Origin: Bacteroidota bacterium
GTDB lineage: Bacteria > Bacteroidota > Ignavibacteria > UBA10030 > UBA6906
Assembly (NCBI GenBank): GCA_038247945.1
Contig: JBBRUI010000003.1
Location: 1 to 43,756, forward strand
Length of the DNA: 43,756 nucleotides
Direction of reading: 5' to 3'
Shown: positions 1,601 to 25,447 of the stretch, in pieces
Numbering within the stretch: position 1 is the first letter of the stretch
Layout: every line of letters starts with the position of its first letter
Program-made: the position numbers and the translations under genes
Notes under the pieces: model-generated
Told to the model about the DNA's origin: nothing
Seen by the model: only the letters and a program-made list of their open reading frames with translations
The model's database searches: none

Positions 1601-3202
1601 ATGGCCCTTCGGCTGATTTGGGGAAGGACGCGTGCCCGTCATCGGTTTACACACGCAGAAGTCACACTCGTTCTTCTTGTTCTGATACTGTTCTTCTCCC
1701 GATGCGACACTGTTGATCCTCCGCCGCCGGCTGTTGTTCCGGCAACCGCACTCCTTTCTCAATCCGAAGTCGAATCCATTCTCGCCCACGCTGTCGAGCA
1801 AGCACAGCGAGTCAATCAAAAAGTCATCGTTGCAATTTCGGACCGCGAAGGAAACATCCTCGGTGTGTTCAGAATGACGGGGGCGCGATTGGATTCCACT
1901 CTTGTTCAGGTCAATGGATTATCGGTGAGCGTAACCAACATCGACATTTCCATTCGGAAGGCGCGTACAGCAGCATTTCTCAGCAGCAACCAAAATGCGT
2001 TTTCGACCACGACCGCAAGCTTCATTACACGTCCGCATTTTCCTCCGGGCGTTTCCAACACTGCGGCGGGTCCGTTGTTCGGTGTTGGATTTTCGAGCCT
2101 TCCGTTTGGCGATATCATGCCCAACGGCAGCGCTCTAAACGACAAGCCCGGCGGCATTCCGATTTACAAAGGGGGAATTCTTGCCGGTGGGGTTGGCATC
2201 ACGGGCGCAACTTCGCAATTCGATTCGGTATTGTGCACAGGACAAAGTCTTGATGAGACCATCGCGCAAGGTTCGCTTGCCGAATTTTCAGTTCCTCCGG
2301 AGAAGCGGGGCGACAATATTTTTATAGATGGAATTCGATTTCTCTACGCGAATACGACAATGCCCGGAGGGAATTTCACACTCACGTTTACGTCCGCATT
2401 GACGTTCGGGGCAATTGAAGCCGCGTATCCGACACGAGGAACACCCGCCCAAAAATTTCCCGCTGCTGGCGTAGTAATGTTGGGGGGTCCATTCGACTTT
2501 CGAATCAGAGGAAGCCTGTTAGGAGGCCTCTCGGAATCGGAAGTTCGGAGAATAATTGATCAAGCCGCAGGGCAAGCCGCAAAAACGCGTGCGGCAATTC
2601 GTCGCCCGGTTGGCGTTGCTGCACAGGTGTTCATCTCGGTAGTTGATGTCGACGGCTCCGTCCTCGGTATCTGGCGAACTCCCGACGCAACGATCTTCAG
2701 TTACGACGTGAGCGCGCAAAAGGCGCGGACTGCGCTAGCGTTCAGCAATCCGGGCAAAGCGGGATTTGGCGATGTCATTCGCGGCATCCTTGGCCTTACC
2801 TCAACACAGCCGCTGGCGATGACAACACGTGCGGTTGGATTCTTAAGCCAGGATTTCTACCCGCCGGGCATAGACCGTGACTCTCTCGGCATTCGCCGTG
2901 AACCGGGTCCGTTGTTTGAAGGAACCGATTTTAAGTATCAGCGACGCTTGCTGGGACTCGCCGGTTTGCCGGCGTATGGCAATGGCATTACAATTTTTCC
3001 CGGCGGCATTCCTCTGTACAAGAACGGCGTACTCGTTGGTGCGATCGGGATCAGCGGTGATGGGGTGGATCAGGATGATTTGATTGCGTCTGCCGGGACT
3101 GTCGGGTTTGAGGCGCCGTCTGCTATCCGGTGCGATCAGTTCTTCTACAAAAATATTCGCCTTCCGTATATCAAAACTCCACGCAATCCTGAAATCCAAT
3201 GA
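1601..3202 (+). CDS. Exported (probable lipo)protein with two GlcG/HbpS heme-binding domains
   Basis: Two copies of the pattern (V/I)xxxDxxG...KARTA...PGGIP(I/L)YK.G.L.G.(V/I)GI(T/S)G; hydrophobic N-terminus ending FSR-C. Confidence 0.85.
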   Translation: MALRLIWGRTRARHRFTHAEVTLVLLVLILFFSRCDTVDPPPPAVVPATALLSQSEVESILAHAVEQAQRVNQKVIVAISDREGNILGVFRMTGARLDSTLVQVNGLSVSVTNIDISIRKARTAAFLSSNQNAFSTTTASFITRPHFPPGVSNTAAGPLFGVGFSSLPFGDIMPNGSALNDKPGGIPIYKGGILAGGVGITGATSQFDSVLCTGQSLDETIAQGSLAEFSVPPEKRGDNIFIDGIRFLYANTTMPGGNFTLTFTSALTFGAIEAAYPTRGTPAQKFPAAGVVMLGGPFDFRIRGSLLGGLSESEVRRIIDQAAGQAAKTRAAIRRPVGVAAQVFISVVDVDGSVLGIWRTPDATIFSYDVSAQKARTALAFSNPGKAGFGDVIRGILGLTSTQPLAMTTRAVGFLSQDFYPPGIDRDSLGIRREPGPLFEGTDFKYQRRLLGLAGLPAYGNGITIFPGGIPLYKNGVLVGAIGISGDGVDQDDLIASAGTVGFEAPSAIRCDQFFYKNIRLPYIKTPRNPEIQ

Positions 3203-4917
3203 TCTCTTTCTCTCAAAATGATGGAAAGCTTTTTTGCGGGTTGATCGGGTTGATGATTATTTCTCTTTGGTCAACGTCGGCTCTGGGACAGATGAAGGAA
3301 TCACAAGCCGGTAAAGATTCCCTAAAAGCCGTGGCTGATTCCGCGACCGGACGGCAGGGGTTGATGGACTTTGAAGTAATAGAGAATCGCTGGCGCATAA
3401 AAGCTCCGCCTCATGAACTCAGTGTTGAAGGCAGTGTCATCGATCCCTACAACCAAAATGTGTTGAAAGGCGATTATCCGATCATCGGGCAGAACACATT
3501 TTTTATTCTTACTGCTGCTGCGGAGAATTTCGTCGAAGCTTCACGCACTCCGACACCCAGCGGCGTCAGCTCAATCGATCCGAAGAGCGAAGACTTTTTT
3601 GGAAGAGGTGAAAAGTTATTTGTAAACGAAAGCGCCAGGCTAAGCTTTGAGTTGTATGGCGGAGATGTCGCATTCAGGCCGCGTGACTGGGAGTTGAAAG
3701 TAACTGCAGTGTTTAACCTCAACTACATCAACACAAAAGAAAACAACGGCGACAATATCAATGTGCGAAAAGGAGACGACCGCACAGACCACCACATTGC
3801 TTTTCAGGAATTGTTCTTCGAGAAACATCTGTTCAACGTGAGCGATCGGTTTGATTTTGTTTCGATGAAAATCGGCATTCAGAAATTCGGCAGCGATTTC
3901 AGAAACTTTATTTTCAGCGATTTCAATCTCGGCGCACGCCTATTCGGCAATTTGAATTCAAACCGCATTCAATGGAATCTGATCTACCTGCCGATGCTTG
4001 AAAAAGAAACGAACAGCGAGCTGAACACTGTCTTCGAAAAAAGGGAACAGGATGTCGCAATTGCCAATGTGTACATACAGGATTGGCTCGCGCTCGGCTA
4101 CACAACACAGTTCAGCGTTCATTACAACCATGATAAGCCGAGCGTTCACTTCGATGAGAACGGATTTCCGGTTCGTCCTGCAGTTGCCGGCAACACGAAG
4201 CCGCACGACATCAAAGCGTATTACGCCGGATGGACGGGCGACGGACATTTCGGATGGCTGAACATCACACACGCATTCTATCAGGTATTCGGCGAAGATG
4301 ATTTCAATTCGTTTGCCGGAAAGAAAATCTCCATCAATGCACAGATGGCGGCGCTTGAGCTTTCGGTTGATGACGATTGGCAGCGCTTCCGCATTTCGGG
4401 ATTCTACGCTTCAGGTGATGACAATATCAGCGACGACGTTGGGAAAGGGTTCGATGCAATCGTTGACGAGCCGGTCTTTGCGGGCGGCGCATTCAGTTGG
4501 TGGAATTCCCAGCGAGTGGGATTGCAGGGCGTCGGACTTGTGCAGAAAAAAAGTTTTCTCAACACGCTGCGCAGCAGTAAGACGGAAGGTCAGGCGAACT
4601 TCGTCAACCCCGGACTTCTTCTCGCTAACATTGGTTACGACGCCGACATCACGCCAAAAATAAGAGCAGTTCTCAACGTCAACTATCTTCGGTTCGTCAA
4701 CACGGCAGTGCTGGTTGATTTCACGAATCAGAATTCAATCCACAAACAAATCGGGCTTGATTTCAGTCTGGGTGTCATTTACAGGCCGTTCCTGAACAAC
4801 AACGCGATCTTCACATTCGGATTCTCTGCCCTATCCCCGATGGCGGGGTTCAGAGATTTGTATAAGACAAATCAGATTCAGTATGCGTTCTTCACGTCGT
4901 TGGTGTTTACGTATTGA
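3199..4917 (+). CDS. Putative outer-membrane beta-barrel (porin-like) protein
   Basis: Signal peptide, many amphipathic strands with aromatic residues, BAM-type C-terminus YAFFTSLVFTY; ATGA overlap with the upstream gene. Confidence 0.75.
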   Translation: MISFSQNDGKLFCGLIGLMIISLWSTSALGQMKESQAGKDSLKAVADSATGRQGLMDFEVIENRWRIKAPPHELSVEGSVIDPYNQNVLKGDYPIIGQNTFFILTAAAENFVEASRTPTPSGVSSIDPKSEDFFGRGEKLFVNESARLSFELYGGDVAFRPRDWELKVTAVFNLNYINTKENNGDNINVRKGDDRTDHHIAFQELFFEKHLFNVSDRFDFVSMKIGIQKFGSDFRNFIFSDFNLGARLFGNLNSNRIQWNLIYLPMLEKETNSELNTVFEKREQDVAIANVYIQDWLALGYTTQFSVHYNHDKPSVHFDENGFPVRPAVAGNTKPHDIKAYYAGWTGDGHFGWLNITHAFYQVFGEDDFNSFAGKKISINAQMAALELSVDDDWQRFRISGFYASGDDNISDDVGKGFDAIVDEPVFAGGAFSWWNSQRVGLQGVGLVQKKSFLNTLRSSKTEGQANFVNPGLLLANIGYDADITPKIRAVLNVNYLRFVNTAVLVDFTNQNSIHKQIGLDFSLGVIYRPFLNNNAIFTFGFSALSPMAGFRDLYKTNQIQYAFFTSLVFTY

Positions 4918-4992
4918 GTGATTTGATATTCGCAATTCGGTGTTCCTTGTTCGACATTGGTTTTCCGAATCATGAATATTGAACAAGGAAGT

Positions 4993-5017
4993 TTGTCCGA
5001 AGGACTCCTTCGGAGAA
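4993..5017. repeat. REP-like palindrome, copy 1
   Basis: TTGTCCGAAGGACTCCTTCGGAGAA (9-bp perfect inverted repeat), identical to 11486-11510. Confidence 0.85.
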
Positions 5018-5071
5018 CGATGAAGTTTTCCAGGAACCAGTTGAGACTCACGAGTATTGAAGGTGTGTAGG

Positions 5072-8000
5072 ATGAACATTGTTACTCGATGCTCCTTAAA
5101 ATTTCTTTCGTTGATGTTGCTGCTACCGTTGTGCACCCCATGTTCTCGCGCGCAAGAGAACAACCTCATCAACCAAACCCAAGCCGACGCCGACCGCAAA
5201 AGCAAAGGCTGCATTACATGTCACGGCGGCATCGAGCCGATGCACAAGAGCACAGCAGTCAAGCTTGGCTGCGTTGATTGTCACGGCGGTAATGCCGATG
5301 CAACGACGATAAAGGACGGACACGTCCAGCCAAAATACGCGGAGCGTTGGAAGACTTCTGCAAATCCCGAGCGGACGTACACGCTGCTGAACGAAGAGTA
5401 TCCCGGTTACGTCCGCTTTGTGAACCCCGGCGATTTGCGCTCTGCAGACAAAGCGTGCGGGCCATGCCACAACCAATCTTCCGACCCGATTGTGCGCAAC
5501 GTGCAGAAAAGTATGATGACAACGTCCGCATTATTGTTCGGCGGCGCAGCGTATAACAACGGAATACTCCCCACAAAAAACTATGTACTTGGAGAGAGTT
5601 ACAGTCCGGAGGGCAAGCCGCAGCGCATTAACACCGTTCCCGCACCGAGCGCGGAGGACATGAAGAACAAGGGCGTGCTGCCGTTTGTGCTTCCCCTGCC
5701 GCGATGGGAAATCACCCAGCCGCCGGATAACTTCCGGAGTTTCGAGCGCGGAGGAAAAGTTTCCCGCATCAATCCGTCTGATATAGGAATTCCGAATCCG
5801 TTTGAAGAACCGGGACGACCGGACAATAAACTCAGCGACAGAGGAACAGGGACTCAACTTCGCATCAGCTCGCCGATACTGAACATCCATAAGAGTCGGC
5901 TCAACGATCCGCATCTTTCATTTCTCGGAACGAATGACCATCCCGGCGATTATCGTTCAAGCGGATGCACGGGTTGTCACGTTGTGTACGCGAACGATCG
6001 CTCGACTTTTAATGCAGGACCGTATGCAAAGTTCGGCAACCGTGGCCAATCGCAATCTGCCGATAAAACAATATCGAAGTCTGAGCCGGGACATCCTATC
6101 AAACATCAATTCACACGTTCTATTCCATCCAGCCAGTGCATGAGCTGTCACATGCATCAGCCGAATTCTTTTGTCAACACGTATCTCGGTTTTCAGATGT
6201 GGGATTATGAAACGGATGGCGAGCAAATGTATCCGAAGCAACAGAAATATCCGACGGCTTCGGAATCTTTTTCCATGCTTGAGAAAAATCCTGAAGAAGC
6301 TGTGCTGAGAGGAAACTGGAGCAATGAAGAATTCCTTGCGAACGTCAGCGGATTGAATCCGCAACTCTCTCATACTCAGTTCTCTGATTATCACGGTCAT
6401 GGCTGGGTGTTTCGCGCCGTGTTCAAGAAGGATCGAAAGGGAAATCTGTTAGATAAGGACGGCAAGATCATTCCAGAGAATTCTCCGTTCAAGTTCGAGG
6501 GTGTTGTTCCGGTTGAAGGAGTTACACCGAAGGCTTCTGTTGTTGGAAGTCAAAAATCGCAGAAGGCCGTCCATCTCAAAGACATCCATCTCGAAAAAGG
6601 AATGCACTGCGTTGATTGTCATTTCAAGCAAGATGTACACGGAAATGGAAATCTCGTCGGAGAGTTTCACAATGCAGTTGAGATTCAATGCGTTGATTGC
6701 CATGGAACAGTTGGAGCAAAAGCGGCTCTCAAGACATCCGGAGTTGCCGCGCCGGCGGGCGGAAGTGATTTGAGCGAGATGTATACACCATTCGGCGAGC
6801 GACGTTTTCGAAAATCCGGCGGAAGAATTACGCAACGCTCCACGTTGGTCGATACGCTTCAATGGGAGATTCTGCAAACTGCAGACGCACATAAATCCAA
6901 CAAGAAAGCTGAAGCTGCCCATCTGATGATGAGAGATGGAAGAATTGGAAAGTCGGGAACGGATGAGGATATGCTCGCCCATTCATACAAGAAAATGGAA
7001 TGTCAGAGCTGCCACACGTCGTGGATAACAAACTGCTTCGGATGCCATTTGCCCCAGCAAGCGAACTGGAAGAAGCAGATGAACCACTACGAAGGAGAAA
7101 CCTCGCGCAACTGGACGAGCTACAATCCGCAGATTGCACGCGACGAAGGCTACATGCTCGGCATCGCAGGAACGACGAAAGGAAATAAAATTACGACCGT
7201 TCGCTCGTCGAGCGCGCTGGTGTTGAGTTCAGTGAATGCAAACCGCGAACAAATCTACAATCAGCAAGCGCCGATTTCTTCACCGGGGTTCAGCAGCCAG
7301 GCGTTCAATCCGCATTTCGCTCATACCGTCCGAGCAACGGAAACGAGAACATGCACGGACTGTCATCTCTCATCAAAAAATGATAACAACGCGTGGATGG
7401 CGCAACTGCTGTTGCAGGGAACGAACTTTGTGAACTTCATGGGAAAGTACGTTTATGTTGCAGCGGGGAACGGCGGTGTCGAAGCGGTGCAAGTGACCGA
7501 GCAGGATGAGCCGCAAGCCGTCATCGGGAGTTATCTGCAATCTCTGGCTTATCCGGATAACTTCCGGGAACACACGCAGAAAAAAATGGAGCTCCAAACC
7601 TCCTACCATCACGGCGGTGAGATTCTGAATGCTCAGTTGCGCGGCGAATACTTGTTTGCTGCGTGTGGTGAGGGCGGCTTCCGCGCCTACGATGTGGCGA
7701 ACATTGACAACAAGGGATTCTCGGAACGCATCATTACATCACCCGTTTCCGCGTTCGGGCAGAATACGCATGTGAAATCCCGCTACGCGACGGCTGTCGC
7801 ATTGCCGACGACTATGCCAATCGATACGCGGCGAGTTTACAGGCCGGAGAATCAGGAGCAAGGTCCTCTTCATCCTTTGTATAGCTACGCGTACATCACG
7901 GACAAGTATGAAGGACTGATTATTGTCGACGTGATGAATCTGGTCGATGCCGACCCGCGCAATAATTTTCTTGAACGGGCTTTGACATTTAATCCCGATG

Positions 8001-8761
8001 GTATGTTGAACGGCGCCGTGAACCTGACAGTTGCAGGCAAGTACGTTTACATCTGCTGCGACCGCGGGATCGTCGTCCTCAATATCGACGACCCATTGAA
8101 ACCACGGGTCGTAGGAGAAGTTGGAACGGCATTCATAAAGAAGCCCAAAGCAATTGCAGTTCAATTCCGTTACGCGTTTGTATGCGATGCTGAAGGAGTG
8201 AAGGTCCTCGATCTGACACTAAAGGAAGAACCAAAGCCGGTGAAGGGGAGTTTTATTCCTCTTCAGGATGCAAACGACATCTATGTTGCGCGAACATATG
8301 CTTACGTTGCTGCAGGGTCCCAGGGTCTTGCGATACTCGATGTGGAAAATCCGGAAGCGATGAAGATCGAAAAAATCTTCACTGCCGATGGCGTCATCAA
8401 CGATGCACAGGGAGTGAAGGTGGCGTCAACGAACGCGAGTTTGTTTGCGTATGTTGCCGATGGACGGAATGGCTTGAGGGTTATTCAATTGACGTCGCCG
8501 AAAACTGTTCCCGGATATCTCGGTTTCAGTCCGAAGCCCGCGCCGCAACTGATTGCAACGAAGAGGATGAGCGGCCGCGCCCTTGCAGTTTCCAAAGGAT
8601 TGGACAGAGATAGGGCGGTTGATGAAAGCGGCAATCAGGTGAGTGTGTTCGGAAGGCTTGGCTCCCGTCCGTTTACACTGGAAGAGATGCAGCGGATGTA
8701 TATGAAGGATGGAAAAGTTTGGACGGTGGCGGATGATGGAATCATCAAATATAAGAAATGA
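5072..8761 (+). CDS. Exported decaheme c-type cytochrome fused to a C-terminal LVIVD-repeat beta-propeller
   Basis: Ten CxxCH motifs (CITCH, CVDCH, CGPCH, CTGCH, CMSCH, CVDCH, CVDCH, CQSCH, CFGCH, CTDCH) followed by YAYV/A...GL.I.DV repeats; signal peptide. ATG at 5072 preferred over TTG at 5057. Confidence 0.9.
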   Translation: MNIVTRCSLKFLSLMLLLPLCTPCSRAQENNLINQTQADADRKSKGCITCHGGIEPMHKSTAVKLGCVDCHGGNADATTIKDGHVQPKYAERWKTSANPERTYTLLNEEYPGYVRFVNPGDLRSADKACGPCHNQSSDPIVRNVQKSMMTTSALLFGGAAYNNGILPTKNYVLGESYSPEGKPQRINTVPAPSAEDMKNKGVLPFVLPLPRWEITQPPDNFRSFERGGKVSRINPSDIGIPNPFEEPGRPDNKLSDRGTGTQLRISSPILNIHKSRLNDPHLSFLGTNDHPGDYRSSGCTGCHVVYANDRSTFNAGPYAKFGNRGQSQSADKTISKSEPGHPIKHQFTRSIPSSQCMSCHMHQPNSFVNTYLGFQMWDYETDGEQMYPKQQKYPTASESFSMLEKNPEEAVLRGNWSNEEFLANVSGLNPQLSHTQFSDYHGHGWVFRAVFKKDRKGNLLDKDGKIIPENSPFKFEGVVPVEGVTPKASVVGSQKSQKAVHLKDIHLEKGMHCVDCHFKQDVHGNGNLVGEFHNAVEIQCVDCHGTVGAKAALKTSGVAAPAGGSDLSEMYTPFGERRFRKSGGRITQRSTLVDTLQWEILQTADAHKSNKKAEAAHLMMRDGRIGKSGTDEDMLAHSYKKMECQSCHTSWITNCFGCHLPQQANWKKQMNHYEGETSRNWTSYNPQIARDEGYMLGIAGTTKGNKITTVRSSSALVLSSVNANREQIYNQQAPISSPGFSSQAFNPHFAHTVRATETRTCTDCHLSSKNDNNAWMAQLLLQGTNFVNFMGKYVYVAAGNGGVEAVQVTEQDEPQAVIGSYLQSLAYPDNFREHTQKKMELQTSYHHGGEILNAQLRGEYLFAACGEGGFRAYDVANIDNKGFSERIITSPVSAFGQNTHVKSRYATAVALPTTMPIDTRRVYRPENQEQGPLHPLYSYAYITDKYEGLIIVDVMNLVDADPRNNFLERALTFNPDGMLNGAVNLTVAGKYVYICCDRGIVVLNIDDPLKPRVVGEVGTAFIKKPKAIAVQFRYAFVCDAEGVKVLDLTLKEEPKPVKGSFIPLQDANDIYVARTYAYVAAGSQGLAILDVENPEAMKIEKIFTADGVINDAQGVKVASTNASLFAYVADGRNGLRVIQLTSPKTVPGYLGFSPKPAPQLIATKRMSGRALAVSKGLDRDRAVDESGNQVSVFGRLGSRPFTLEEMQRMYMKDGKVWTVADDGIIKYKK

Positions 8762-9759
8762 AACGAATTAGATTCGTAGGACTATTGAGTGTATTCATTC
8801 TGACCCAGGCTTTGCCGCAGGGCAAGTATCAAACTGTCGGCCCGGAAGGCTGCGGTTCTACAAAGAACAATTGCCATGCCTCGGAAAACAAGAACATGGT
8901 GGACAAGCATAAGAACTCCCTTGATTTTGCTCAAAGCGAAGAGGCAGCCGGGTATGCAGAAAAATCAGGCGTTGGCGCGGCGAACATGCTGAAGGGGAAC
9001 TCCAAATGCATGGAGTGTCACGGAACCGTGGTCTCAGGCAGAGAGACGAAGGAAGGAGAAGAAGGCGTGAGTTGCGAAAGCTGTCACGGCGCGGGAAGCG
9101 GCTACAAGGATGTACACTCGGAAGGACCGAAAGGCGCGGCGGGGAGTGTCCGGGATGGCTATTCCAAATCACTCCCATTGGGAATGATTGATCTGAAGAA
9201 ACAAGAAATCCTTGCCGCGGCTTGCGTGCGGTGCCATCTTCTCACCGATCAAAAAATTCTCAGCGCCGGCCACCCGGACGGTATCAAATTCAACTACAAA
9301 TCCGGAATGAAGTCCGTTGCAAAGCATTGGAAATACCGCGACCAGGGAAACATTCCGGACCAGCCGGTATTCAAAGCAGCAGTCGGAAAAAAAGGGCCGA
9401 CCGGTAAGGCAGTAAGGGCTGTAGTATCCGCAGGTAGCGAAGCTCCGCCCGCAAAAACCCGGGCCGAGAAACCTCAAAGGGCAACTCCTGATGTGCCGTC
9501 AACAACATCGACCGAGACACTGCCCGTTGCAAAAATGACCGTAAGTAACGCGGAAGATGAACCGGCGCCGGTCCGCGTTCGCAAACTTCCGCCTCCGCCG
9601 AGGACCCCGACAGCAGATTTGAGCATAGCGCCTTCACCTACAAAAGAGCCGATCGTATTGCCGCCATTTCCGATAATTACAGACAGCACGCGCATTGATC
9701 AAACACTTTTGTTGTTGAGACGGCGGCTGGAGTTGTTGTATAGGAAAGTTGGATCATGA
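8758..9759 (+). CDS. Cytochrome c554-like multiheme cytochrome (3 CxxCH + 1 CX6CH) with Pro/Ala-rich tail
   Basis: Signal peptide; VGPEG-CGSTKNNCH, CMECH, EGVSCESCHGAGS, CVRCH; low-complexity C-terminal third; ATGA overlap. Confidence 0.85.
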   Translation: MKRIRFVGLLSVFILTQALPQGKYQTVGPEGCGSTKNNCHASENKNMVDKHKNSLDFAQSEEAAGYAEKSGVGAANMLKGNSKCMECHGTVVSGRETKEGEEGVSCESCHGAGSGYKDVHSEGPKGAAGSVRDGYSKSLPLGMIDLKKQEILAAACVRCHLLTDQKILSAGHPDGIKFNYKSGMKSVAKHWKYRDQGNIPDQPVFKAAVGKKGPTGKAVRAVVSAGSEAPPAKTRAEKPQRATPDVPSTTSTETLPVAKMTVSNAEDEPAPVRVRKLPPPPRTPTADLSIAPSPTKEPIVLPPFPIITDSTRIDQTLLLLRRRLELLYRKVGS

Positions 9760-9808
9760 ACAATGGAATAACAATGTCGGCACAAACAAAAACAATGAAT
9801 CAACAAAG

Positions 9809-11440
9809 ATGAGCATCGGTCAGACGCAACTTAAACGTCTCGAGCAATATAAAGATCGTTGGACGTCCTTTGGCGGGAACACCGGCATCATCGAGCTTTC
9901 CGAGAAACCAACGCCTGACGTCTTGAAGAAGTACGACATTTTCAAGGACTACGACGACAAGTTCCTCGAGAAAATTTCACCCGATGTTTCGATTGCGCGA
10001 TGGAAAGCGGGAACGTTGCTGTTTGAAGAGGGAAGTTATGTCGATATAGCTTTCTATATCGTCTCGGGCGGTGTGGATGTATACCTTCAGAAGCAACAAG
10101 CCGCTGCTGCGCCGATCTTTGGAGGTTCGCGTACAAAACTCATGACGGCGCCTTTGGCAGGACAAACCAGGGTTTCTTCAGGTGGTACGAAATTCGGTTC
10201 TGCCCCGAGCGCCCCGAAGAGGGAACCCGGTTCAACTTCAATTACATTTCTTGCCTCAATGAGTTTTGATTTGCCGACCGGCGGAACGATAAAGCTTTCA
10301 GCGGGAGATATCTTCGGAGAAATTGGGGCGCTTAGTGGTTGGCCGCAATCCGCGACAGCAAAGACAACTTCGGAATGTCAACTAATCCAGATTCGTACAG
10401 CAGCGCTTCGCATCATGCGCAAACGGTCCGCGGGACTCAAAGCACGGCTCGACAAACTTTACAAAGAACGGACATTGACCTCACAGCTTCAGGCAACGCC
10501 GCTGTTCAGAGAAATAGGCGAAGCCTCGCTCAAAACTCTCGCTCAGAAGGTCGAGCTGATCTCCTGTGAACCTGACGAAGTAATTACCAAAGAGGGCGAG
10601 TTCGCCGACGCGTTGTATCTTGTGCGCTCGGGTTTCATCAAGCTGTCTCAAAAATTGGGAGAGGGAAACATCGTTGTTTCGTATCTCTCAAAAGGAAATA
10701 TTTTTGGAGACGCTGAATTATTGTTGGATGGAGAACATACATGGCTTTACACTGCTTCGTCTCAAGAATACTCCGAGTTGGTAAAGATATCCCGTTCCGA
10801 CTTCCGGTCGGTACTTGCGGAGAATCCAGCGATGGAGAGATTACTGTGGGAATCGGTCGTCGCGAGAACGAAGGAGGCAGGCTACAGCAAGCGCAACATC
10901 AACCAATCGGAATTCATTTCCACCGCGTTGAACGAGGGATTGGTAGAAGGGAACAGCATTCTTGTTATCGATCTTAATGTCTGTACGCGCTGCGATGATT
11001 GCGTCCGCGGCTGTTCCGATACGCACGGCGGCATCCCGCGGTTTGTTCGTGAGGGAAACAAAATTGGAAACTTCCTCGTCACGCGGGCGTGTTATCATTG
11101 CGAAGATCCTGTATGCCTGATAGGTTGTCCGACCGGAGCAATTCGCCGGACCGATGTTGGTGACGTTGTCGCAATCGATGACAACCTTTGCATCGGCTGC
11201 TCTTCGTGCGCGAACAATTGTCCGTACGATGCAATCACCATGCATGACACTGGCGAGATGTGGCCCGGCGATATGATTCCCGAGGGACTGCGCGGAAAAG
11301 AAAAGCAGCTTGCCACCAAATGCGACCTTTGCTATCAAGACCCCGCTGGTCCGGCTTGTGTGCGGAGTTGCCCGCATGGCTGTGCCGTGCGCGTGGGCGA
11401 TGTGCAGGAGTTTAGAAGCTTGTTGTGGAAAGATGTGTAG
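9809..11440 (+). CDS. Two cNMP-binding (CAP-effector-fold) domains fused to a DmsB/NrfC-type 4x[4Fe-4S] ferredoxin
   Basis: LFEEG...YIVSGGV...FGEIG and ITKEGE...YLVRSG...FGD domains; Cys groups CTRCDDCVRGC, CYHCEDPVCLIGCP, CIGCSSCANNCP, KCDLC...PACVRSCP. ATG at 9809 preferred over TTG at 9749. Confidence 0.9.
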   Translation: MSIGQTQLKRLEQYKDRWTSFGGNTGIIELSEKPTPDVLKKYDIFKDYDDKFLEKISPDVSIARWKAGTLLFEEGSYVDIAFYIVSGGVDVYLQKQQAAAAPIFGGSRTKLMTAPLAGQTRVSSGGTKFGSAPSAPKREPGSTSITFLASMSFDLPTGGTIKLSAGDIFGEIGALSGWPQSATAKTTSECQLIQIRTAALRIMRKRSAGLKARLDKLYKERTLTSQLQATPLFREIGEASLKTLAQKVELISCEPDEVITKEGEFADALYLVRSGFIKLSQKLGEGNIVVSYLSKGNIFGDAELLLDGEHTWLYTASSQEYSELVKISRSDFRSVLAENPAMERLLWESVVARTKEAGYSKRNINQSEFISTALNEGLVEGNSILVIDLNVCTRCDDCVRGCSDTHGGIPRFVREGNKIGNFLVTRACYHCEDPVCLIGCPTGAIRRTDVGDVVAIDDNLCIGCSSCANNCPYDAITMHDTGEMWPGDMIPEGLRGKEKQLATKCDLCYQDPAGPACVRSCPHGCAVRVGDVQEFRSLLWKDV

Positions 11441-11574: not shown

Positions 11575-12411
11575 ATGAAAGAGCTTTTCAAAAGACTTCA
11601 GCTTGATCGCTTTGTTCGCTCGCCCGAATGGGCAGTTGCGCTTATTGTTGCGACAGTCATCTGCTGTGCTGTGTACGCGCTGAACGCTCTGGTTTCAGAA
11701 ATAAATCCCGGTAACTGGTGGGGATTGACATACGGAATAATTTCCTCCCTGCTTATGTTCGGTGCAGGACTGTACGGCGTACGCAGGCGGATGTTAAATC
11801 GGAACCTGGGTAATTCAAAAGTGTGGGTGCAGTTTCACATCTATGGCGGAGCGCTTGCAGGCGTACTCGTCCTTATGCATACAGGCTTTCGTTTGCCGTA
11901 TGGCCTGTTCAACTGGCTGCTGTGGCTGCTTTCTATATGGGTAACGGTAAGCGGATTGCTCGGCGTTGCATTGCAGCGATGGATACACCGTATTCTTTCC
12001 TCCGCGCTTTCGATTGAAGCGATATACGAAAGAATCCCGGAACTGGTGATGCAGTTGCGCGAGCGGGCGGAGAAACTGGTTGCATCGTGTGCCGAACCTA
12101 TCCAGGATTTTTACAGGGCCAATGTTGCGGCTACGTTGGCAGCACCCGAGGCTCGACTTATTTATTACTTCGATATTACCGGCGGCGTACAATCACGAGT
12201 GAAGCAATTTGAATTTCTCAGACGCGTGCTTTCATCAGATGAAAAAGAAATATTCGACAAGATTCAAGGAATTTACAAATCGAAATTGGAATTGGACGCT
12301 CATTATTCTCTTCAGCGCTCATTGCGGTGGTGGTTGTACACGCACGTGCCGGCTTCGTTCGTTCTGTTGCTCATGATCGCATTTCATATTTTCGCAGTTT
12401 TATATTACTAG
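11575..12411 (+). CDS. Polytopic membrane protein, probable di-heme cytochrome b (ferric-reductase-like TM domain)
   Basis: About 5 hydrophobic segments; two His pairs in TM helices (WVQFHIYGG...LMHTG; WLYTHVP...AFHIF). Confidence 0.75.
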   Translation: MKELFKRLQLDRFVRSPEWAVALIVATVICCAVYALNALVSEINPGNWWGLTYGIISSLLMFGAGLYGVRRRMLNRNLGNSKVWVQFHIYGGALAGVLVLMHTGFRLPYGLFNWLLWLLSIWVTVSGLLGVALQRWIHRILSSALSIEAIYERIPELVMQLRERAEKLVASCAEPIQDFYRANVAATLAAPEARLIYYFDITGGVQSRVKQFEFLRRVLSSDEKEIFDKIQGIYKSKLELDAHYSLQRSLRWWLYTHVPASFVLLLMIAFHIFAVLYY

Positions 12412-12412
12412 A

Positions 12413-14002
12413 ATGGCAAAACCCGGAAACGAAAACAGAAGGAAGGGAACATTCGCCCGCGGGTTGCTTCCCGTTGCGAAAACGTATATCCGTCCCGTCA
12501 CGCGAAAAAAGCTGGCGATTCTCGGCGGTATCGGTTGCGCACTGGTTGCGCTCTATTATGTTGCCGATGCGTTTCTTCTGAGCAGCACATTCCTTTCCGG
12601 CGGACCGCTTTCCGCTAACCATTCAAATTTTGAAAGTGAATGCGCAAAGTGTCATCAGTCGTTCCGAGGCGTTGTAAATTCCAAGTGCTCGGTCTGTCAT
12701 GAAAAGACAAACGACAAGCTCGGCGTGTACACGTTCAAAGCACATTATCTGCACAGGTCGGAGGAAACGAAACGGATTCAGGATGGGATGTCAAAGCACG
12801 GAAAGGATGAAACAAACTGCGCTTCCTGCCATCCCGATCATCGTGGCCGCGGCGCGGCGATTACGCGTGTGCTCGATTCGCAATGCGCTCAATGTCATTA
12901 CTCATCGTTCAACAAAGATCATCCGCCGTTCCGTCTCCTTGCTGTCGCTGACGATTCTACATTGAAGATGACACACGTGAAGCACACGAAGGAACTCCTG
13001 AAGAAATTAAACACGCCGAACATCGAGCAGGCTTGCCTCTACTGCCACAATCCGCAACCAGATGGGAAAGGTTTCAAGGCGCTTGACTTCGATATGCACT
13101 GCGCTGATTGTCATCTCACCACATCTTCTGAAACGCCCGCATTGACAATAAAGGATGCTTCGATCGCTGCATCTCCGGGTGTTGAGACGCTTGAGACGAT
13201 TCAGCGCCGCAAAGGTCCCGGTACGATCTGGGCTTTCTACACAAACCCGAATGAGTTCAGTGTATCAAATGGGAAAGTAAAGAAATCGCCCGTCTACCAT
13301 CGTGATCCATGGATACTCGAAAATCTGAAGCAGATATACCGGACTCTGTATTCGGATTCAAGCCTTGCGGATTTGTTAAACGCATCGGGACGCGGGGCAA
13401 CAAAGAGTAAACAACAAATTTATGCTGAGGCGATCAAGACGCTGCGGGATTATGTGGCCGGGCTCCGTTCGCGGCCTGAGCCTGAAGTGCAAATGGAATT
13501 GGTCAGGATCGATTCGTTGCTGAACGCGGCGGAGAGTAAGATCATGAGGGGCAGAGAAATACTTCCTGACCTTATGCCGATGATGAAAATGATTTCGGAG
13601 AATTCATCGCTGACCCAAGAACAGCGTGCCGCTCTTGAAGACTTTGCCCTGAAGCTTACTCGGCCTTGCCAGGAATGTCACATGGTGGAACACGCTTCGA
13701 TTCTTAGCGTGAAGGCGAGCCAGCGAACTTTCCAACGCGCAGAGTTCGATCATCGTGCGCACATCACACAGCGCCGTTGCCTTGAATGTCACGATGTTAT
13801 TCCGGTAGAGCAAGCCCTTGCCGGTGATACGACAGGCATTGCGGTGATAGATAAAGCTTCTACGAAAAATATTCCCGGTATTCAGAATTGTTATGAATGC
13901 CATACGAAAGATGCAGGTTCCAATGCCTGCGTCACCTGCCATTTCATGCATCCGAACAAGGAGAACAGAGGAAGCTTGCAACTTTTTGTAACGAAGCAAT
14001 GA
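12413..14002 (+). CDS. Membrane-anchored decaheme c-type cytochrome (cytochrome c3/c7-like repeats)
   Basis: Basic N-terminus plus TM helix, GPLSANH, ten CxxCH motifs (CAKCH, CSVCH, CASCH, CAQCH, CLYCH, CADCH, CQECH, CLECH, CYECH, CVTCH). Confidence 0.9.
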   Translation: MAKPGNENRRKGTFARGLLPVAKTYIRPVTRKKLAILGGIGCALVALYYVADAFLLSSTFLSGGPLSANHSNFESECAKCHQSFRGVVNSKCSVCHEKTNDKLGVYTFKAHYLHRSEETKRIQDGMSKHGKDETNCASCHPDHRGRGAAITRVLDSQCAQCHYSSFNKDHPPFRLLAVADDSTLKMTHVKHTKELLKKLNTPNIEQACLYCHNPQPDGKGFKALDFDMHCADCHLTTSSETPALTIKDASIAASPGVETLETIQRRKGPGTIWAFYTNPNEFSVSNGKVKKSPVYHRDPWILENLKQIYRTLYSDSSLADLLNASGRGATKSKQQIYAEAIKTLRDYVAGLRSRPEPEVQMELVRIDSLLNAAESKIMRGREILPDLMPMMKMISENSSLTQEQRAALEDFALKLTRPCQECHMVEHASILSVKASQRTFQRAEFDHRAHITQRRCLECHDVIPVEQALAGDTTGIAVIDKASTKNIPGIQNCYECHTKDAGSNACVTCHFMHPNKENRGSLQLFVTKQ

Positions 14003-14003
14003 C

Positions 14004-14936
14004 ATGAAAGCCAAACTGTTTTGCAAAACGGGACAACTCTCCGGCGCAACATTCGAGATTCAACCCGTCACCACGATCGGGAAGAATGCTGAGAATACAA
14101 TTCAATTGTACCCCGCGTTGATTTCGGGAAAACATGCGCGCATTTCCTTCGATGAAAAATCGAACGGATATTTTCTCGAAGACCTGAACAGCCGGAACGG
14201 TACGCGCCTCGACGGAATGAGGGTACGGGGGAAAGAACGGTTGGGCAAATTGAACGTCATAACATTCGCCGACACATTTGATTTCTTTTTTCAGATTGTC
14301 GAGGCAGGGGCTTCGTCGTCACCTGCTTCGCAACCTGCAAAATCGCCAACCTTGCAACGGCCGGAACCCGTTCCTCGTCCGAACGTCAAACAGCCCGTGA
14401 CCGAAGTGAATAAGGAATTCGCTCCAATACCCGAGATTGAAGTTGAAGCAAGACAAAAAACAATTTTGGATGACGGTGGTTTCGTTTTTCCTTCAATTTT
14501 AGAGGAAAAGAAGAATGAAACGCCCGCAGCAGCGCGAACGAAAGTCGGCGTAGAATTTACGCCTCTACCGTCGTTCAGTCCTGAAAGCGCCCGGCGCGCT
14601 GAATTGGAGCGAGCTGCAGGGCAACAGGTTGCTCCGAAATATGTTCTGATTTTTGAGACGCTGAAAGACGGACCGAAAACTTTTGATATAAAAGAAGGAT
14701 CTACAATTGTTGGACGTGACGCCTCCTGTGCGATTCCAGTCGACGATGGCTCGGTCTCTCGAAAACACGCGGAGTTTGTCTTCGAGCGCGGCAGGCTTAC
14801 CCTCAAAGATCTCGGAAGCAAGAACCACACGCACATTGATGACCAGAGAATCTCACGGGAGGTGGAGTTGCGAGAAGGGATGGAAATCAGTTTCGGACTT
14901 TTGAAGGCCCGGTTGGTGAAGAAGCCTACAAAATGA
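14004..14936 (+). CDS. Double FHA-domain protein with Pro/Thr-rich linker
   Basis: N-terminal IGK...ISGKHA...DLNSRNGT and C-terminal VGR...VSRKHA...DLGSKNHT FHA signatures. Confidence 0.9.
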   Translation: MKAKLFCKTGQLSGATFEIQPVTTIGKNAENTIQLYPALISGKHARISFDEKSNGYFLEDLNSRNGTRLDGMRVRGKERLGKLNVITFADTFDFFFQIVEAGASSSPASQPAKSPTLQRPEPVPRPNVKQPVTEVNKEFAPIPEIEVEARQKTILDDGGFVFPSILEEKKNETPAAARTKVGVEFTPLPSFSPESARRAELERAAGQQVAPKYVLIFETLKDGPKTFDIKEGSTIVGRDASCAIPVDDGSVSRKHAEFVFERGRLTLKDLGSKNHTHIDDQRISREVELREGMEISFGLLKARLVKKPTK

Positions 14937-14955: not shown

Positions 14956-17274
14956 ATGCCTGACATAGAATACAAGTCCGATGGGTCGCTGGTTCTAAAC
15001 CAGCCTGTTCAGCTTCCCGAAGTCCTCGACTTGCTCGTCGTGGGCGGCGGACCTGCGGGAACTGCTGCAGCATTCAGGGCGAAAGAACTGGGACTGAATG
15101 TTCTGGTGATCGATTACGACGATTTGATGAAACGGATCCGGGATTATCCGAAAGACAAACTGATCCTTCCCGATTTTGGCGGCGGTGATCAAATGCGCTT
15201 TCCGAAAGGCGGCGACTTGATTACCGCGCTGCATTTTTCCGCTCTTGATAAGGATGAGATGGTGAATGAATGGAAGCGTCTGTACGTAACGCACAATGTC
15301 CCCGCGAAGATAGGCATAGAACTTCTTGGAATGCAACGACGAAGCGACGGTGTGCTGCAGGTGAAAACATGGAACCATACCATCCGGGCTGAAGAACAGA
15401 TTCTCGCAAAGCACATTGCAATCGGAATCGGACGCGGCGTACCGCGCCGCTTCGACATCCCCGGCAACACGGATGGCATTGCATACAGGCTTGCTGATGC
15501 GCAGGCATACGTGGGCAATCCATCGCTCATCATCGGCGGGGGAACTTCGGCGGCAGAAGCTGTGATTGCAATTTCAAATGCCAAAACAAAAACCCGGGAT
15601 GCATCGGCTGTCTACTGGGCGTATCGCGGCGATAAGCTTCCCAAAGTTTCCAAAGCGCTCGCGGACGTTTTCTTTGAAGCGTATATGGGCAACGGCAATA
15701 TTCGATATTTCCCCAATAGTGAACCCGTCGCCGTTGTAACCGCGGACGATAAGCAGGAATATTTTTCGCTGAGGACGGATCGCAAAACAATTGCCGGGCG
15801 TCCCAATGAGACCTCCCACCTGGAATTCCTCAAAGATTTTTGCGTTGCATGCATTGGCGAGGATATCCCGGAGGCGTTTCTTTCATCTATCGGTGTCAGC
15901 ATGGTAACCGGTGGTGCAGCGAACAAAAAGCGCATGTGTGTTTCACCGTTGCTGGAAACGCAACAACCGAACGTCTATCTCATCGGCGATATTCTAAGTC
16001 AGGTGTATCTCGAAACAGATGATTTCAAATCTGACCCGTCGGCGTTCCGGGAGGTAAAACATCGTGGCAACATAAAAGCCGGGATGATTGATGGAGTGAT
16101 TGTCGCGGAAGTTGTTGCTCAAAGGATTGCGGGAAAAAAAGATATCGACGTGCAGGTGGAATTCGTTGCGGATGTTCCTGCAGAAAAATCGAAACCGGCC
16201 GGACCGTTGATGACGATTTTATCCTCACTTGAAGATTCATCCACACAAAAGCAAACCGGCGCACAGCAAGAAAGTATCCCATATGCGGTTCTGGTGCGAG
16301 TAACTGCCGGTGGAGTGGAAGAAGATGAGTTTCCTCTCAAACACAATGGCGTGACAACGATCGGAAAGAAGTTCTGCGATATTGTTTTTCCCGACGACGT
16401 GAATCTCTCCGAACGTCATGCATCTCTGTCGCATGGTCCCGACGGTTTTTCTTTGCGAGATGATGGAAGCCAGACCGGAGTGTTCTTATCTGCTACCGAA
16501 GGGAAACCTGTTCAGGTAGCGAACGGAGATCTCATACGACTCGGACGGCAATTCCTGGTCTTCAAGGAAGACAACGGGATTTTTTCTTTCATCCACTACG
16601 ACCGGACGGGCAAACAGATCGGCAAGCACTCGCTTGCGCCGGAGAAAACTGTTGTTCTTGGCCGCGAAGCTCCTGATATTACTCTTGACGCGTCGGACAT
16701 GACACTCTCCCGCCGGCATGTTTCTGTTGCCGTGAAAGAGGGACAAGTATTCATCAAGGATTTAAAGAGCGCGAACGGCACGTATCTGAAAGTTCGCAGC
16801 GCGACTCCCATCGGGCCCGGGGAAATGTTTCGTGCCGGGAATCAGGCATTCCGGCTGAGTGTGCAAAAAGAAGCTGCTACCGGAAGTGTTCGACTTCAGT
16901 CAAGACCGCCCTCTGTTGCCAAACCGAAACCAAAGGCTGATGTATTACCTCCGGAAAAGAAAGCGGAACCTCCCGCGCAGAAGGGAATGGTTGTGGTGTT
17001 CAAGAACCTCGGAAAAACAGTTGCGTTCGAACCCGGCCAGACAATCTGCAGCATTGCCGAAAAGAACGGAATCAAAATTGTCGCTGAATGTCATGCAGGC
17101 ATTTGTGGAAGCGACCCGATCAAGATAGTGTCGGGTAAAGAAAATCTGAGTACTATGGGGGCCGACGAGAAGGGGACATTGGAAGATATCTGTGGTTTGA
17201 ATCCCGGCGAACACAGGCTTGCGTGTATGGCGAAACCAACCAATACAGTTGAAATAGAAATTACCAGCGCGTGA
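14956..17274 (+). CDS. TrxB/YpdA-like FAD/NAD(P)H oxidoreductase fused to two FHA domains and a C-terminal [2Fe-2S] ferredoxin
   Basis: VVGGGPAG, IIGGGTSA..A, YRG, YLIGD motifs; FHA motifs LSERHA/DGSQTGV and LGR/LSRRHV/LKSANGT; CHAGICGSD...RLAC. Confidence 0.88.
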   Translation: MPDIEYKSDGSLVLNQPVQLPEVLDLLVVGGGPAGTAAAFRAKELGLNVLVIDYDDLMKRIRDYPKDKLILPDFGGGDQMRFPKGGDLITALHFSALDKDEMVNEWKRLYVTHNVPAKIGIELLGMQRRSDGVLQVKTWNHTIRAEEQILAKHIAIGIGRGVPRRFDIPGNTDGIAYRLADAQAYVGNPSLIIGGGTSAAEAVIAISNAKTKTRDASAVYWAYRGDKLPKVSKALADVFFEAYMGNGNIRYFPNSEPVAVVTADDKQEYFSLRTDRKTIAGRPNETSHLEFLKDFCVACIGEDIPEAFLSSIGVSMVTGGAANKKRMCVSPLLETQQPNVYLIGDILSQVYLETDDFKSDPSAFREVKHRGNIKAGMIDGVIVAEVVAQRIAGKKDIDVQVEFVADVPAEKSKPAGPLMTILSSLEDSSTQKQTGAQQESIPYAVLVRVTAGGVEEDEFPLKHNGVTTIGKKFCDIVFPDDVNLSERHASLSHGPDGFSLRDDGSQTGVFLSATEGKPVQVANGDLIRLGRQFLVFKEDNGIFSFIHYDRTGKQIGKHSLAPEKTVVLGREAPDITLDASDMTLSRRHVSVAVKEGQVFIKDLKSANGTYLKVRSATPIGPGEMFRAGNQAFRLSVQKEAATGSVRLQSRPPSVAKPKPKADVLPPEKKAEPPAQKGMVVVFKNLGKTVAFEPGQTICSIAEKNGIKIVAECHAGICGSDPIKIVSGKENLSTMGADEKGTLEDICGLNPGEHRLACMAKPTNTVEIEITSA

Positions 17275-18050
17275 AAACAATAACCTTTGCGAACCTCACC
17301 GACATCGGGCAGGTGCGCACCGAGAATCAGGATGCAGTGGGAAAATTTCCCTCCGATAATCTGGACATTTCATCCCCGAAGGGACAGCTGTTTATAGTGG
17401 CAGATGGAATGGGCGGCCATGCAGGCGGACGCGAAGCAAGCCGGCTTGCAGTCGAAACTGTTGCCAAATCATATTTTGACTCGACAGGAACCATCGTAGA
17501 GAGTTTGAAGCAGGCTTTCAATGCAGGAAATAAAACGATCTATGAAGAGAGCCTTAACAATCCTCAGTTGCGGGGAATGGGAACGACCTGCATTGCTCTC
17601 GTTTTCCAAAAAGGTGTTGCGTACGTTGCGCATGTCGGCGATAGCAGGTTGTATAGAATCACGCCCCGCTCAATTGATCAATTAACGAACGACCATTCGA
17701 AGGTCGCAGAGATGGTTCGTCGCGGTATTATCACTGCCGAAGATGCGGAGAATCATCCTGAACGGTCGATGCTGTATCGCGCAATGGGAGTAAGTGCAAG
17801 AATGGAATTCGATGTGATGAACGGTCTCCAGTTAAGCTCCGATGAATACTACCTGATGTGTACCGATGGCCTGACCGGCTATCTGGGTCCGGCCGAATTG
17901 CAGGAGATTGTTTCCGCTCGTCCGCCAGACGAAGCCTGCTCACTGCTTGTCGAGTATGCGAACCGCCGTGGTGGACTCGATAATATTACTGTTCAGATCA
18001 TCCACGTTAAAGGCGATAGTTTTCTGAAATCTATGTTGAGTCCGGAGTAA
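17271..18050 (+). CDS. PP2C/Stp1-type Ser/Thr protein phosphatase
   Basis: TDIGQVR.ENQD, VADGMGGH, GMGTT, HVGDSRLY, MCTDGL, GGLDNITV; GTGA overlap. Confidence 0.96.
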   Translation: MKTITFANLTDIGQVRTENQDAVGKFPSDNLDISSPKGQLFIVADGMGGHAGGREASRLAVETVAKSYFDSTGTIVESLKQAFNAGNKTIYEESLNNPQLRGMGTTCIALVFQKGVAYVAHVGDSRLYRITPRSIDQLTNDHSKVAEMVRRGIITAEDAENHPERSMLYRAMGVSARMEFDVMNGLQLSSDEYYLMCTDGLTGYLGPAELQEIVSARPPDEACSLLVEYANRRGGLDNITVQIIHVKGDSFLKSMLSPE

Positions 18051-18052
18051 CA

Positions 18053-19765: not shown

Positions 19766-19791
19766 TTGTTCATAATGGAAGGGAAAGAGCA

Positions 19792-20808: not shown

Positions 20809-20895
20809 TTTAGATTTGTCGAATGACTACACTCCATCCAGTGCGGGAGGGAAGAGAGTCGATGCCGGACTAGTATTCACTGCAACGGAATTCCC

Positions 20896-22179: not shown

Positions 22180-22213
22180 GGAACACCGCTACTTACAATT
22201 CGTCTTTTTCTAA

Positions 22214-23302: not shown

Positions 23303-23372
23303 AAGAACTCCATCCATTTCTACCAATAAAATGAATTATCGTTGCACAGAAATTATTAGAAAGGATTTCGCC

Positions 23373-25439: not shown

Positions 25440-25447
25440 GAGATTGT

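Follow-up and report, generated by a model that had tools for sequence, protein, structure and literature searches.

An AlgE-like barrel next to a decahaem–propeller cytochrome: a candidate outer module of a ptd-like envelope electron chain

Does an outer-membrane barrel gene adjoining a multihaem cytochrome gene encode a conduit that carries electrons through the outer membrane, as in the Mtr systems, or could such a pair serve another purpose? The question is raised by a gene cluster in contig JBBRUI010000003.1 (assembly GCA_038247945.1) of a Bacteroidota bacterium of the Ignavibacteria (UBA10030; UBA6906), of which we analysed a stretch of 43,756 nucleotides (nt) on the forward strand, positions 1 to 43,756, hereafter the window. 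An initial annotation had placed there a barrel of 572 amino acids (aa) directly before an exported protein of ~1230 aa with ten CxxCH haem-binding motifs and a β-propeller, and had proposed a non-Mtr porin–cytochrome pair whose cytochrome would be an enzyme rather than a simple wire. Both open reading frames (ORFs) lie as described, at 3199–4917 and 5057–8761 on the + strand. In the reading that we favour, and to which we give an even chance, the pair together with the tandem-DUF336 gene preceding it would form the outer module of an envelope-crossing electron chain resembling that encoded by the ptd operon, with the cytochrome as terminal oxidoreductase served by a narrow channel. The features of this candidate outer module are:

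1601–3202, + strand: exported protein with two DUF336/HbpS-like (GlcG-like) domains (Pfam PF03928, 4.9e-29, in two stretches)
3199–4917, + strand: 18-strand outer-membrane barrel of AlgE-like fold, 572 aa (AlphaFold 2 model, Foldseek)
5057–8761, + strand: decahaem c-type cytochrome–propeller fusion, 1234 aa as read from a TTG, with the ATG at 5072 as the likelier start codon
5159–7441, + strand: haem domain of the fusion with its 10 CxxCH (residues 35–795), parts of it collinear with the ExtM profile
7442–8608, + strand: seven-bladed LVIVD/YVTN β-propeller of the fusion (residues 796–1184; 1l0q_A with Z 29.0, and PF08309)
8609–8758, + strand: strongly conserved C-terminal tail of the fusion (RDRAVDESGNQVSVFGRLGSRPF...), with invariant columns in alignments A1 and A2 and 69% mean identity in A2

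Neighbourhoods were compared over 80 retained related loci, 43 of them at least 20 kb long. The barrel gene stood directly upstream of the cytochrome gene, on the same strand, in all 77 loci having upstream sequence (median gap 134 nt); the remaining three begin no more than 150 nt from the cytochrome gene and so are without such sequence. The tandem-DUF336 gene, whose stop in the window overlaps the start of the barrel gene, was present in 71 of the 80 loci, and the relatives of its product by sequence in the PDB were the PduO C-terminal domain (5cx7, 8e-11) and EfgA (6bws, 3e-9). As gene architecture the proposed porin–cytochrome pair thus stands; as a sheath around a haem wire it does not, the modelled barrel being too small.

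The barrel protein has a signal peptide, a single Cys, a C-terminal FTY and no haem site. Its AlphaFold model (83 sequences; pLDDT 80.7, pTM 0.79) consists of 18 long strands, and Foldseek ranked AlgE chains first (3rbh_A, E 3.7e-16, TM 0.68–0.70, identity 12–13%), followed by porins of 16–18 strands; a language-model search led to clusters labelled 'alginate export family'. No match was found for the barrel, as protein or as profile, in Pfam (E up to 0.01), NCBIfam or PDB sequences, and none of its 83 homologues matched a relevant Pfam family (PF11854 was absent at E up to 1, and so was PF13372), in agreement with the label 'non-Mtr'. The initial annotation had itself called for AlphaFold modelling and a Foldseek search and had named a barrel of a known substrate-specific channel family as evidence against its proposal; an AlgE-like barrel with a narrow channel comes close to this. 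Nonetheless, the likeness to AlgE lies in the 18-strand fold: the window barrel has no PF13372 membership and no alginate genes nearby, and its long conserved loop (~residues 405–472) is acidic, in contrast to the basic pore of AlgE. This loop has an Asp-rich inner part (405–430) with D407, D412, D419 and D423 invariant and, together with a conserved but poorly modelled periplasmic N-terminal extension (~residues 32–92), suggests that the barrel has a specific function. In Limnobacter alexandrii, the corresponding barrel ORF (L035:7558–9795), when read from its first possible start, includes an N-terminal SH3_3 domain (2.3e-6) that the window barrel does not have.

Judged from its model, then, the barrel is a narrow-channel fold, unlike the wide MtrB sheath, and is too narrow to sheathe a multihaem protein. 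Because it is AlgE-like, with 18 strands, a wire-in-sheath conduit of the Mtr kind appears unlikely. Like MtrCAB, MtoAB and PioAB, the window does have an outer-membrane barrel gene adjoining a decahaem gene in a multihaem-rich cluster, which encodes at least 24 c-haem sites, and this gene order speaks for a true porin–cytochrome conduit that would transfer electrons to extracellular minerals or electrodes in the manner of MtrCAB or the Geobacter Pcc systems, only with another barrel. Small barrels are, moreover, able to work with a haem domain in Cyc2-type systems. Against this, the window barrel, without PF11854 (MtrB_PioB) similarity, has 18 strands where MtrB has ~26, and its one Cys leaves it without a haem site; the cytochrome, where MtrA has ~330 aa, is a 1234-aa protein with a propeller, globular in its model (130 kDa, pTM 0.84). 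TIGR03508, the family of MtrA/DmsE-type decahaems, was not among the NCBIfam matches of this protein at E up to 0.01, and was only weakly matched by neighbouring cytochromes (0.0015 in one case, 1.1e-5 in another, the latter at 25 bits against a cut-off of 192).

A further point in favour of a conduit is the homology between a portion of the haem domain and ExtM (NCBIfam NF040943) of the Geobacter ext cluster: residues 482–771 and 43–91 follow the profile collinearly, a partial match to profile positions 233–502 had 95.8 bits and E 1.9e-27, and a search of the genome with the ExtM profile gave 72.3 and 26.2 bits for the cytochrome. Full membership of the ExtM family was rejected, 95.8 bits being far under the curated cut-off of 800. 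In Geobacter sulfurreducens, ExtM (GSU2935) belongs to extHIJKLMNOPQS, has 12 haems and is without an assigned role, while ExtI, a small porin-like protein of the same cluster, has been linked to selenite and tellurite reduction (PMC5877670). ExtM differs from the window cytochrome in its 12 haems, its 68 kDa and its lack of a propeller, and the ext cluster has a Rieske/cytochrome b module where the window has a flavoprotein and a ferric-reductase-like module. The authors who described ptd also name extracellular electron transfer as one option (bioRxiv 10.1101/2023.11.21.568154). The manner in which the chain would be fed argues otherwise: in place of a CymA-type quinol oxidase, the window has a cytoplasmic flavoprotein, an Fe-S protein and a di-haem b module, with no visible link to the quinone pool, and carriers of the cluster include cultured aerobic heterotrophs (Limnobacter, Fontimonas and Spectribacter). 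Taking both sides together, we consider a mineral- or electrode-directed conduit unlikely.

Started at the ATG at 5072, the cytochrome begins with a canonical signal peptide ending in ...SRAQ. Its ten CxxCH motifs, at residues 52, 72, 134, 304, 361, 518, 545, 649, 660 and 770, compare with a chance expectation of ~0.02 computed with the protein's own Cys and His content, and exactly ten occur in 107 of 120 family members. They were correctly counted in the initial annotation, which had them spread over ~740 residues; we measure ~719 (52–770). The resulting spacing of ~72–76 residues per haem had been taken as a sign of an enzyme, an argument that we abandon as not diagnostic, since haem density is similar in MtrC as well as in hydroxylamine oxidoreductase. 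The three His-rich motifs that had been singled out as possible sources of distal ligands or of a metal site are all present and, in an alignment of 22 sequences across phyla, largely invariant: D444, Y445, G447, H448, G449 and W450 of DYHGHGW (444–450), L507, D509, I510 and H511 of HLKDIH (506–511), and H753 and H756 of PHFAH (752–756). Among all His of the haem domain outside the CxxCH motifs, H89, H346, H350, H367, H448, H511, H528, H642, H753 and H756 are invariant and H63, H446, H506, H517 and H677 nearly so.

The predicted C-terminal propeller was likewise confirmed. Pfam LVIVD (PF08309) matched residues 1071–1103 above its gathering cut-off (52.4 bits versus 20.2), and in the AlphaFold model of residues 35–1234 (92 sequences; pLDDT 76, pTM 0.84) residues 796–1184 form seven blades, for which the top structural match was 1l0q_A, a seven-bladed YVTN propeller from an archaeal S-layer protein (Z 29.0, rmsd 2.1 Å over 274 residues, 21% identity). 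Many invariant polar residues lie in the propeller and the tail (alignments A1 and A2). The S-layer match, a weak NCBIfam match to the 'choice-of-anchor B' family (1.1e-5) and lipoprotein signals in some homologues would suit a cytochrome displayed on the cell surface, in which the propeller would serve for binding or adhesion and the barrel would either anchor the protein or be its dedicated translocator, and the conserved N-terminal extension of the barrel could hold such a partner. However, a folded holo-cytochrome cannot be expected to pass an 18-strand barrel with a pore of AlgE size, and a Pfam scan found no C-terminal domain of the type IX secretion system (T9SS) on the cytochrome, although T9SS signals occur elsewhere in the genome. 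Moreover, the propeller, the tail and the two halves of the haem domain reach the same degree of conservation (67–70% in A2), which is unusual for exposed adhesins. Surface display therefore seems to us improbable as well. A complex prediction of barrel residues 33–572 with cytochrome residues 779–1234 (propeller and tail; separate alignments) returned a score of 0.00 and a mark of 0.32, which is neither for nor against an interaction.

A sign that the cytochrome may be the catalytic end of a chain came from conservation. Against the window's proteins, and over 74 loci outside the window's lineage, it shows 50–59% identity (median 54%, ~1226 aa aligned), followed by the barrel (median 42%), the DUF336 protein (33%), the protein with cyclic-nucleotide (cNMP) and 4Fe-4S domains (32%), the small c554-like cytochrome (28%), the membrane decahaem and the membrane di-haem b protein (26% each) and the flavoprotein (25%). 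Because its conservation lies far above that of the cluster's carrier cytochromes (54% versus 26–28%), the protein fits a terminal enzyme, or a hub with many contacts, better than an interchangeable wire. The earlier preference for an enzyme is thereby supported, albeit indirectly, and the even conservation of all parts of the protein and the many invariant polar residues of propeller and tail also count in favour of a catalytic role.

More specific enzyme likenesses did not hold. The initial annotation had loosely compared the architecture with cd1 nitrite reductase and hydrazine synthase, which likewise join c-haem and a β-propeller in one exported protein or complex. The cd1 likeness is generic because its top Foldseek rank (E 1e-7) comes at an rmsd of 19 Å, and hydrazine synthase β reached only E 0.13 by sequence. 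The cd1 propeller, moreover, is eight-bladed and binds haem d1, whereas that of the window is of the seven-bladed YVTN type. Sequence searches of the PDB, with single sequences and with profiles, returned nothing significant for barrel or cytochrome. The language-model look-alikes of the haem domain were generic multihaem clusters only, and in an exhaustive HMMER search with cytochrome residues 35–480 all 150 matches listed were members of the same family or fragments of them.

The chain to which the outer module would belong is encoded directly downstream, where the window contains:

8758–9759, + strand: small c554-like cytochrome, PtdD-like (3 CxxCH and one CX6CH; Pfam PF13435, 5.3e-8)
9749–11440, + strand: PtdE-like cytoplasmic protein that combines two cNMP-binding domains with a 4Fe-4S dicluster domain (Pfam; no transmembrane segment or signal peptide)
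11575–12411, + strand: membrane protein consistent with a di-haem b, ferric-reductase-like protein, PtdF-like (two H-x13-H pairs, transmembrane segments)
12413–14002, + strand: inner-membrane-anchored decahaem cytochrome, PtdG-like (10 CxxCH; N-terminal transmembrane segment 33–61; Pfam Cytochrome_C7)
14004–14936, + strand: double-FHA protein, a probable regulator (Pfam PF00498, 1.5e-35)
14956–17274, + strand: PtdC-like FAD/NAD(P)H oxidoreductase that also carries two FHA domains and a 2Fe-2S ferredoxin domain (Pfam Pyr_redox_2/3, FHA and Fer2; NCBIfam YpdA-like)
17271–19765, + strand: PP2C phosphatase (17271–18050), then a Ser/Thr kinase with a PEGA domain (18053–19765) (Pfam)

The resemblance to ptd lies in this part of the cluster. 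The ptdABCDEFG operon, the function of which its authors call 'completely unknown', encodes an FAD/NAD(P) oxidoreductase (PtdC), a small periplasmic multihaem protein (PtdD), a protein with a cNMP domain and two 4Fe-4S clusters (PtdE), a ferric-reductase-like membrane protein (PtdF) and a decahaem (PtdG), and PtdA is described as a pentahaem with a β-sandwich (bioRxiv 10.1101/2023.11.21.568154). The domain content of PtdC to PtdG recurs in the window, by the published description rather than by sequence homology, and in both cases a porin gene adjoins a multihaem gene. In the window, by contrast, the cytochrome paired with the barrel carries 10 CxxCH together with a propeller of seven blades, and the barrel gene follows one for a tandem-DUF336 protein. 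Since PtdA is a pentahaem with a β-sandwich, the outer module of the window is different, or at least differently described. A full-text literature search found no paper on the pair of barrel and decahaem–propeller, only the ptd preprint touching the cluster; an LVIVD protein mentioned in a preprint on Tenderiales is unrelated.

The inner genes accompany the pair in most loci. Of the 80, 51 have the small c554-like cytochrome, 54 the cNMP/4Fe-4S protein, 52 the membrane di-haem b protein and 47 the membrane decahaem, and among the 43 long loci at least one of the last three genes was within 10 kb in 39, and all three in 29. Further clustering of 808 neighbouring ORFs from the 80 loci revealed, beyond this core, genes for cytochrome c maturation (23 loci), for an FGE-sulfatase-domain protein (10 loci) and for a CHASE2 cyclase (6 loci), and Ccm ABC and assembly genes, with no recurrent neighbour among them that hints at a substrate. 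The FGE-sulfatase (SUMF1/EgtB-like) domain gene lies no more than 10 kb from the pair in its 10 loci, as at L006:17912–19309.

How electrons could cross the inner membrane is suggested by the membrane protein at 11575–12411. Its H88/H102 and H257/H271, each pair with 13-residue spacing and in transmembrane helices, are kept in 54–56 of 57 sequences, a pattern consistent with the di-haem b proteins of the ferric-reductase-domain group, even though neither Pfam nor NCBIfam gave a match and the protein thus falls outside the Pfam ferric reductase domain. As in NOX, Fre and MsrQ, the two H-x13-H pairs lie in transmembrane helices and the membrane protein goes with a cytoplasmic NAD(P)H-type flavoprotein, whose gene is its neighbour or is joined to that of the Fe-S protein; the window differs from these in the interposed Fe-S protein with cNMP domains, in having a chain of c-type cytochromes as acceptor, and in the absence of a Pfam ferric reductase match. 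Distant homologues of the membrane protein in two genomes of the same phylum were set aside as parts of different systems. One of these, at L097:9736–19156, lies in a very haem-rich cluster, upstream of genes for proteins of 540 aa (20 CxxCH) and 1070 aa (43 CxxCH) and for an exported protein of 538 aa, and the other is beside no multihaem cytochrome gene.

In the chain that we favour, NAD(P)H would reduce the FAD/2Fe-2S protein (14956–17274), which has no signal peptide or membrane segment; the cNMP-regulated 4Fe-4S protein (9749–11440) would receive the electrons, the di-haem b protein (11575–12411) would take them across the inner membrane, the membrane-anchored decahaem (12413–14002) and the small cytochrome with its Pro-rich spacer (8758–9759) would accept them there, and the chain would end at the 1234-aa decahaem–propeller protein. 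The latter would work at the outer membrane, on its periplasmic side, as a terminal oxidoreductase rather than a passive wire, and the barrel would admit or release a small or linear solute, or tether the cytochrome. The Pro-rich stretch, ~100 residues following the haem part of the small cytochrome, could bridge the periplasm as the spacer of TonB does. At the position of the CX6CH motif (CGSTKNNCH) of the same protein, most homologues have CX4CH and two a plain CxxCH; the motif is thus probably a fourth haem site with a binding loop of variable length.

Electrons could also run the other way. In that case the propeller cytochrome would oxidise a periplasmic donor or one imported via the barrel (for example Fe(II), Mn(II), or an S or N compound in reduced form) and pass electrons inward to the Fe-S protein and flavoprotein in the cytoplasm. 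The Asp-rich inner loop of the barrel could select cations, ferredoxin-NADP reductases are known to be reversible, and ptd genes are found in nitrite oxidisers (bioRxiv 10.1101/2023.11.21.568154). Yet the reduction of NAD(P)+ from such donors is uphill, and no quinone or terminal-oxidase link was seen in the cluster by Pfam scan and neighbour clustering. To our knowledge, moreover, all characterised proteins with ferric reductase domains carry electrons outward. Inward flow is, in our estimate, very unlikely.

Several observations weigh against the proposed periplasmic terminal oxidoreductase at the end of an outward chain. Its high conservation could instead stem from many protein–protein contacts, and the conserved His would make bis-His ligation possible at all ten haems, with some His left over. 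Structure searches with the 1200-residue cytochrome model (Foldseek and a second search) returned matches to the propeller only. As to location, lipoprotein signals were found in ~6 clear cases among 120 cytochrome homologues, and propellers of the LVIVD and 'choice-of-anchor B' kinds typically belong to proteins of the cell surface. The case for outward flow is drawn from the likeness to ferric-reductase-domain proteins and from a flavoprotein of NAD(P)H type, and ferredoxin-NADP reductases are reversible. Finally, all genes of the inner module are missing within 10 kb in four of the 43 long loci (L006, L010, L011 and L071).

A more detailed version of the proposed outward chain, which we put forward tentatively and think rather less probable than its general form, would make it a NOX-like, envelope-spanning reductase that draws on NAD(P)H and has cyclic nucleotides or protein phosphorylation as its switch. 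The decahaem–propeller protein, placed at the periplasmic face of the outer membrane, would then represent a new class of multihaem enzyme. It might act on a small solute (a metalloid oxyanion, or a reactive O, N or S species) for which the AlgE-like barrel would be the dedicated channel, and the DUF336 protein might be a partner that binds a cofactor or the substrate.

As for the switch, the phosphatase and the kinase encoded at 17271–19765 are probably regulators acting via the FHA domains, and judging from these genes control in the lineage of the window would be by phosphorylation, not (or not only) by cyclic nucleotide. In L. alexandrii (L035), a single ORF of 820 aa combines Pyr_redox_3, two cNMP and 4Fe-4S domains (Pfam), and a gene for a CHASE2 cyclase adjoins it. 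Among 54 homologous ORFs, 44 are at least 740 aa long, a length consistent with a flavoprotein–cNMP–4Fe-4S fusion, with Pfam confirmation in L035 alone. Regulatory inputs thus appear to depend on lineage, with FHA, PP2C and kinase proteins in the window and a CHASE2 adenylate/guanylate cyclase beside the cluster in Limnobacter.

The system is widespread. At 90% identity, the cytochrome has more than 8000 homologous protein clusters and the barrel has over 5000, with members of both often on common contigs, and all source names seen for either were 'hypothetical protein'. At least 682 stretches, of 690 candidates, were confirmed in species-representative genomes from many phyla, the carriers including Ignavibacteria, Thermoanaerobaculia and other Acidobacteriota, Planctomycetota, Bdellovibrionota, Binatia, Nitrospirae and Verrucomicrobiota, and many Beta- and Gammaproteobacteria, among them the cultured Limnobacter alexandrii, Fontimonas and Spectribacter acetivorans. 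These bacteria come from soil, groundwater, sediment and the sea. Within the phylum of the window, the cytochrome was found in five of 301 sampled genomes, four of them in one genus, and close homologues of the membrane di-haem b protein occur in exactly the same five; in the genome of the window the cytochrome gene is single-copy. This patchy spread, together with 50–59% identity across phyla, suggests that the cluster moves horizontally. If an envelope chain fed by NAD(P)H has its catalytic end in this pair, aerobes and anaerobes alike would have in it a common and overlooked redox activity, and the pairing of a barrel with a multihaem cytochrome would not by itself imply mineral respiration. 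Cultured carriers (L. alexandrii LZ-4, S. acetivorans P385 and a Fontimonas isolate) make the question testable.

Beyond the cluster, the same strand of the window continues at 19762–27256 with two TPR/CsgG-like proteins, a small outer-membrane β-barrel protein, a protein of 702 aa that includes a Peptidase_S74 chaperone domain, and a protein with FlgD-Ig domain and T9SS tail. The segment 27556–35492 encodes a protein of 1716 aa, in which DUF7948, Big_9 and cadherin-like domains occur, and two more proteins with T9SS C-terminal sorting domains, which place the organism in a T9SS-using group. Further on, an NlpC/P60 ORF (36106–37302) overlaps an enolase-superfamily ORF (37013–38425) by ~290 nt; the latter probably starts further downstream, since its twin-arginine translocation (TAT) signal appears only at residue 96.

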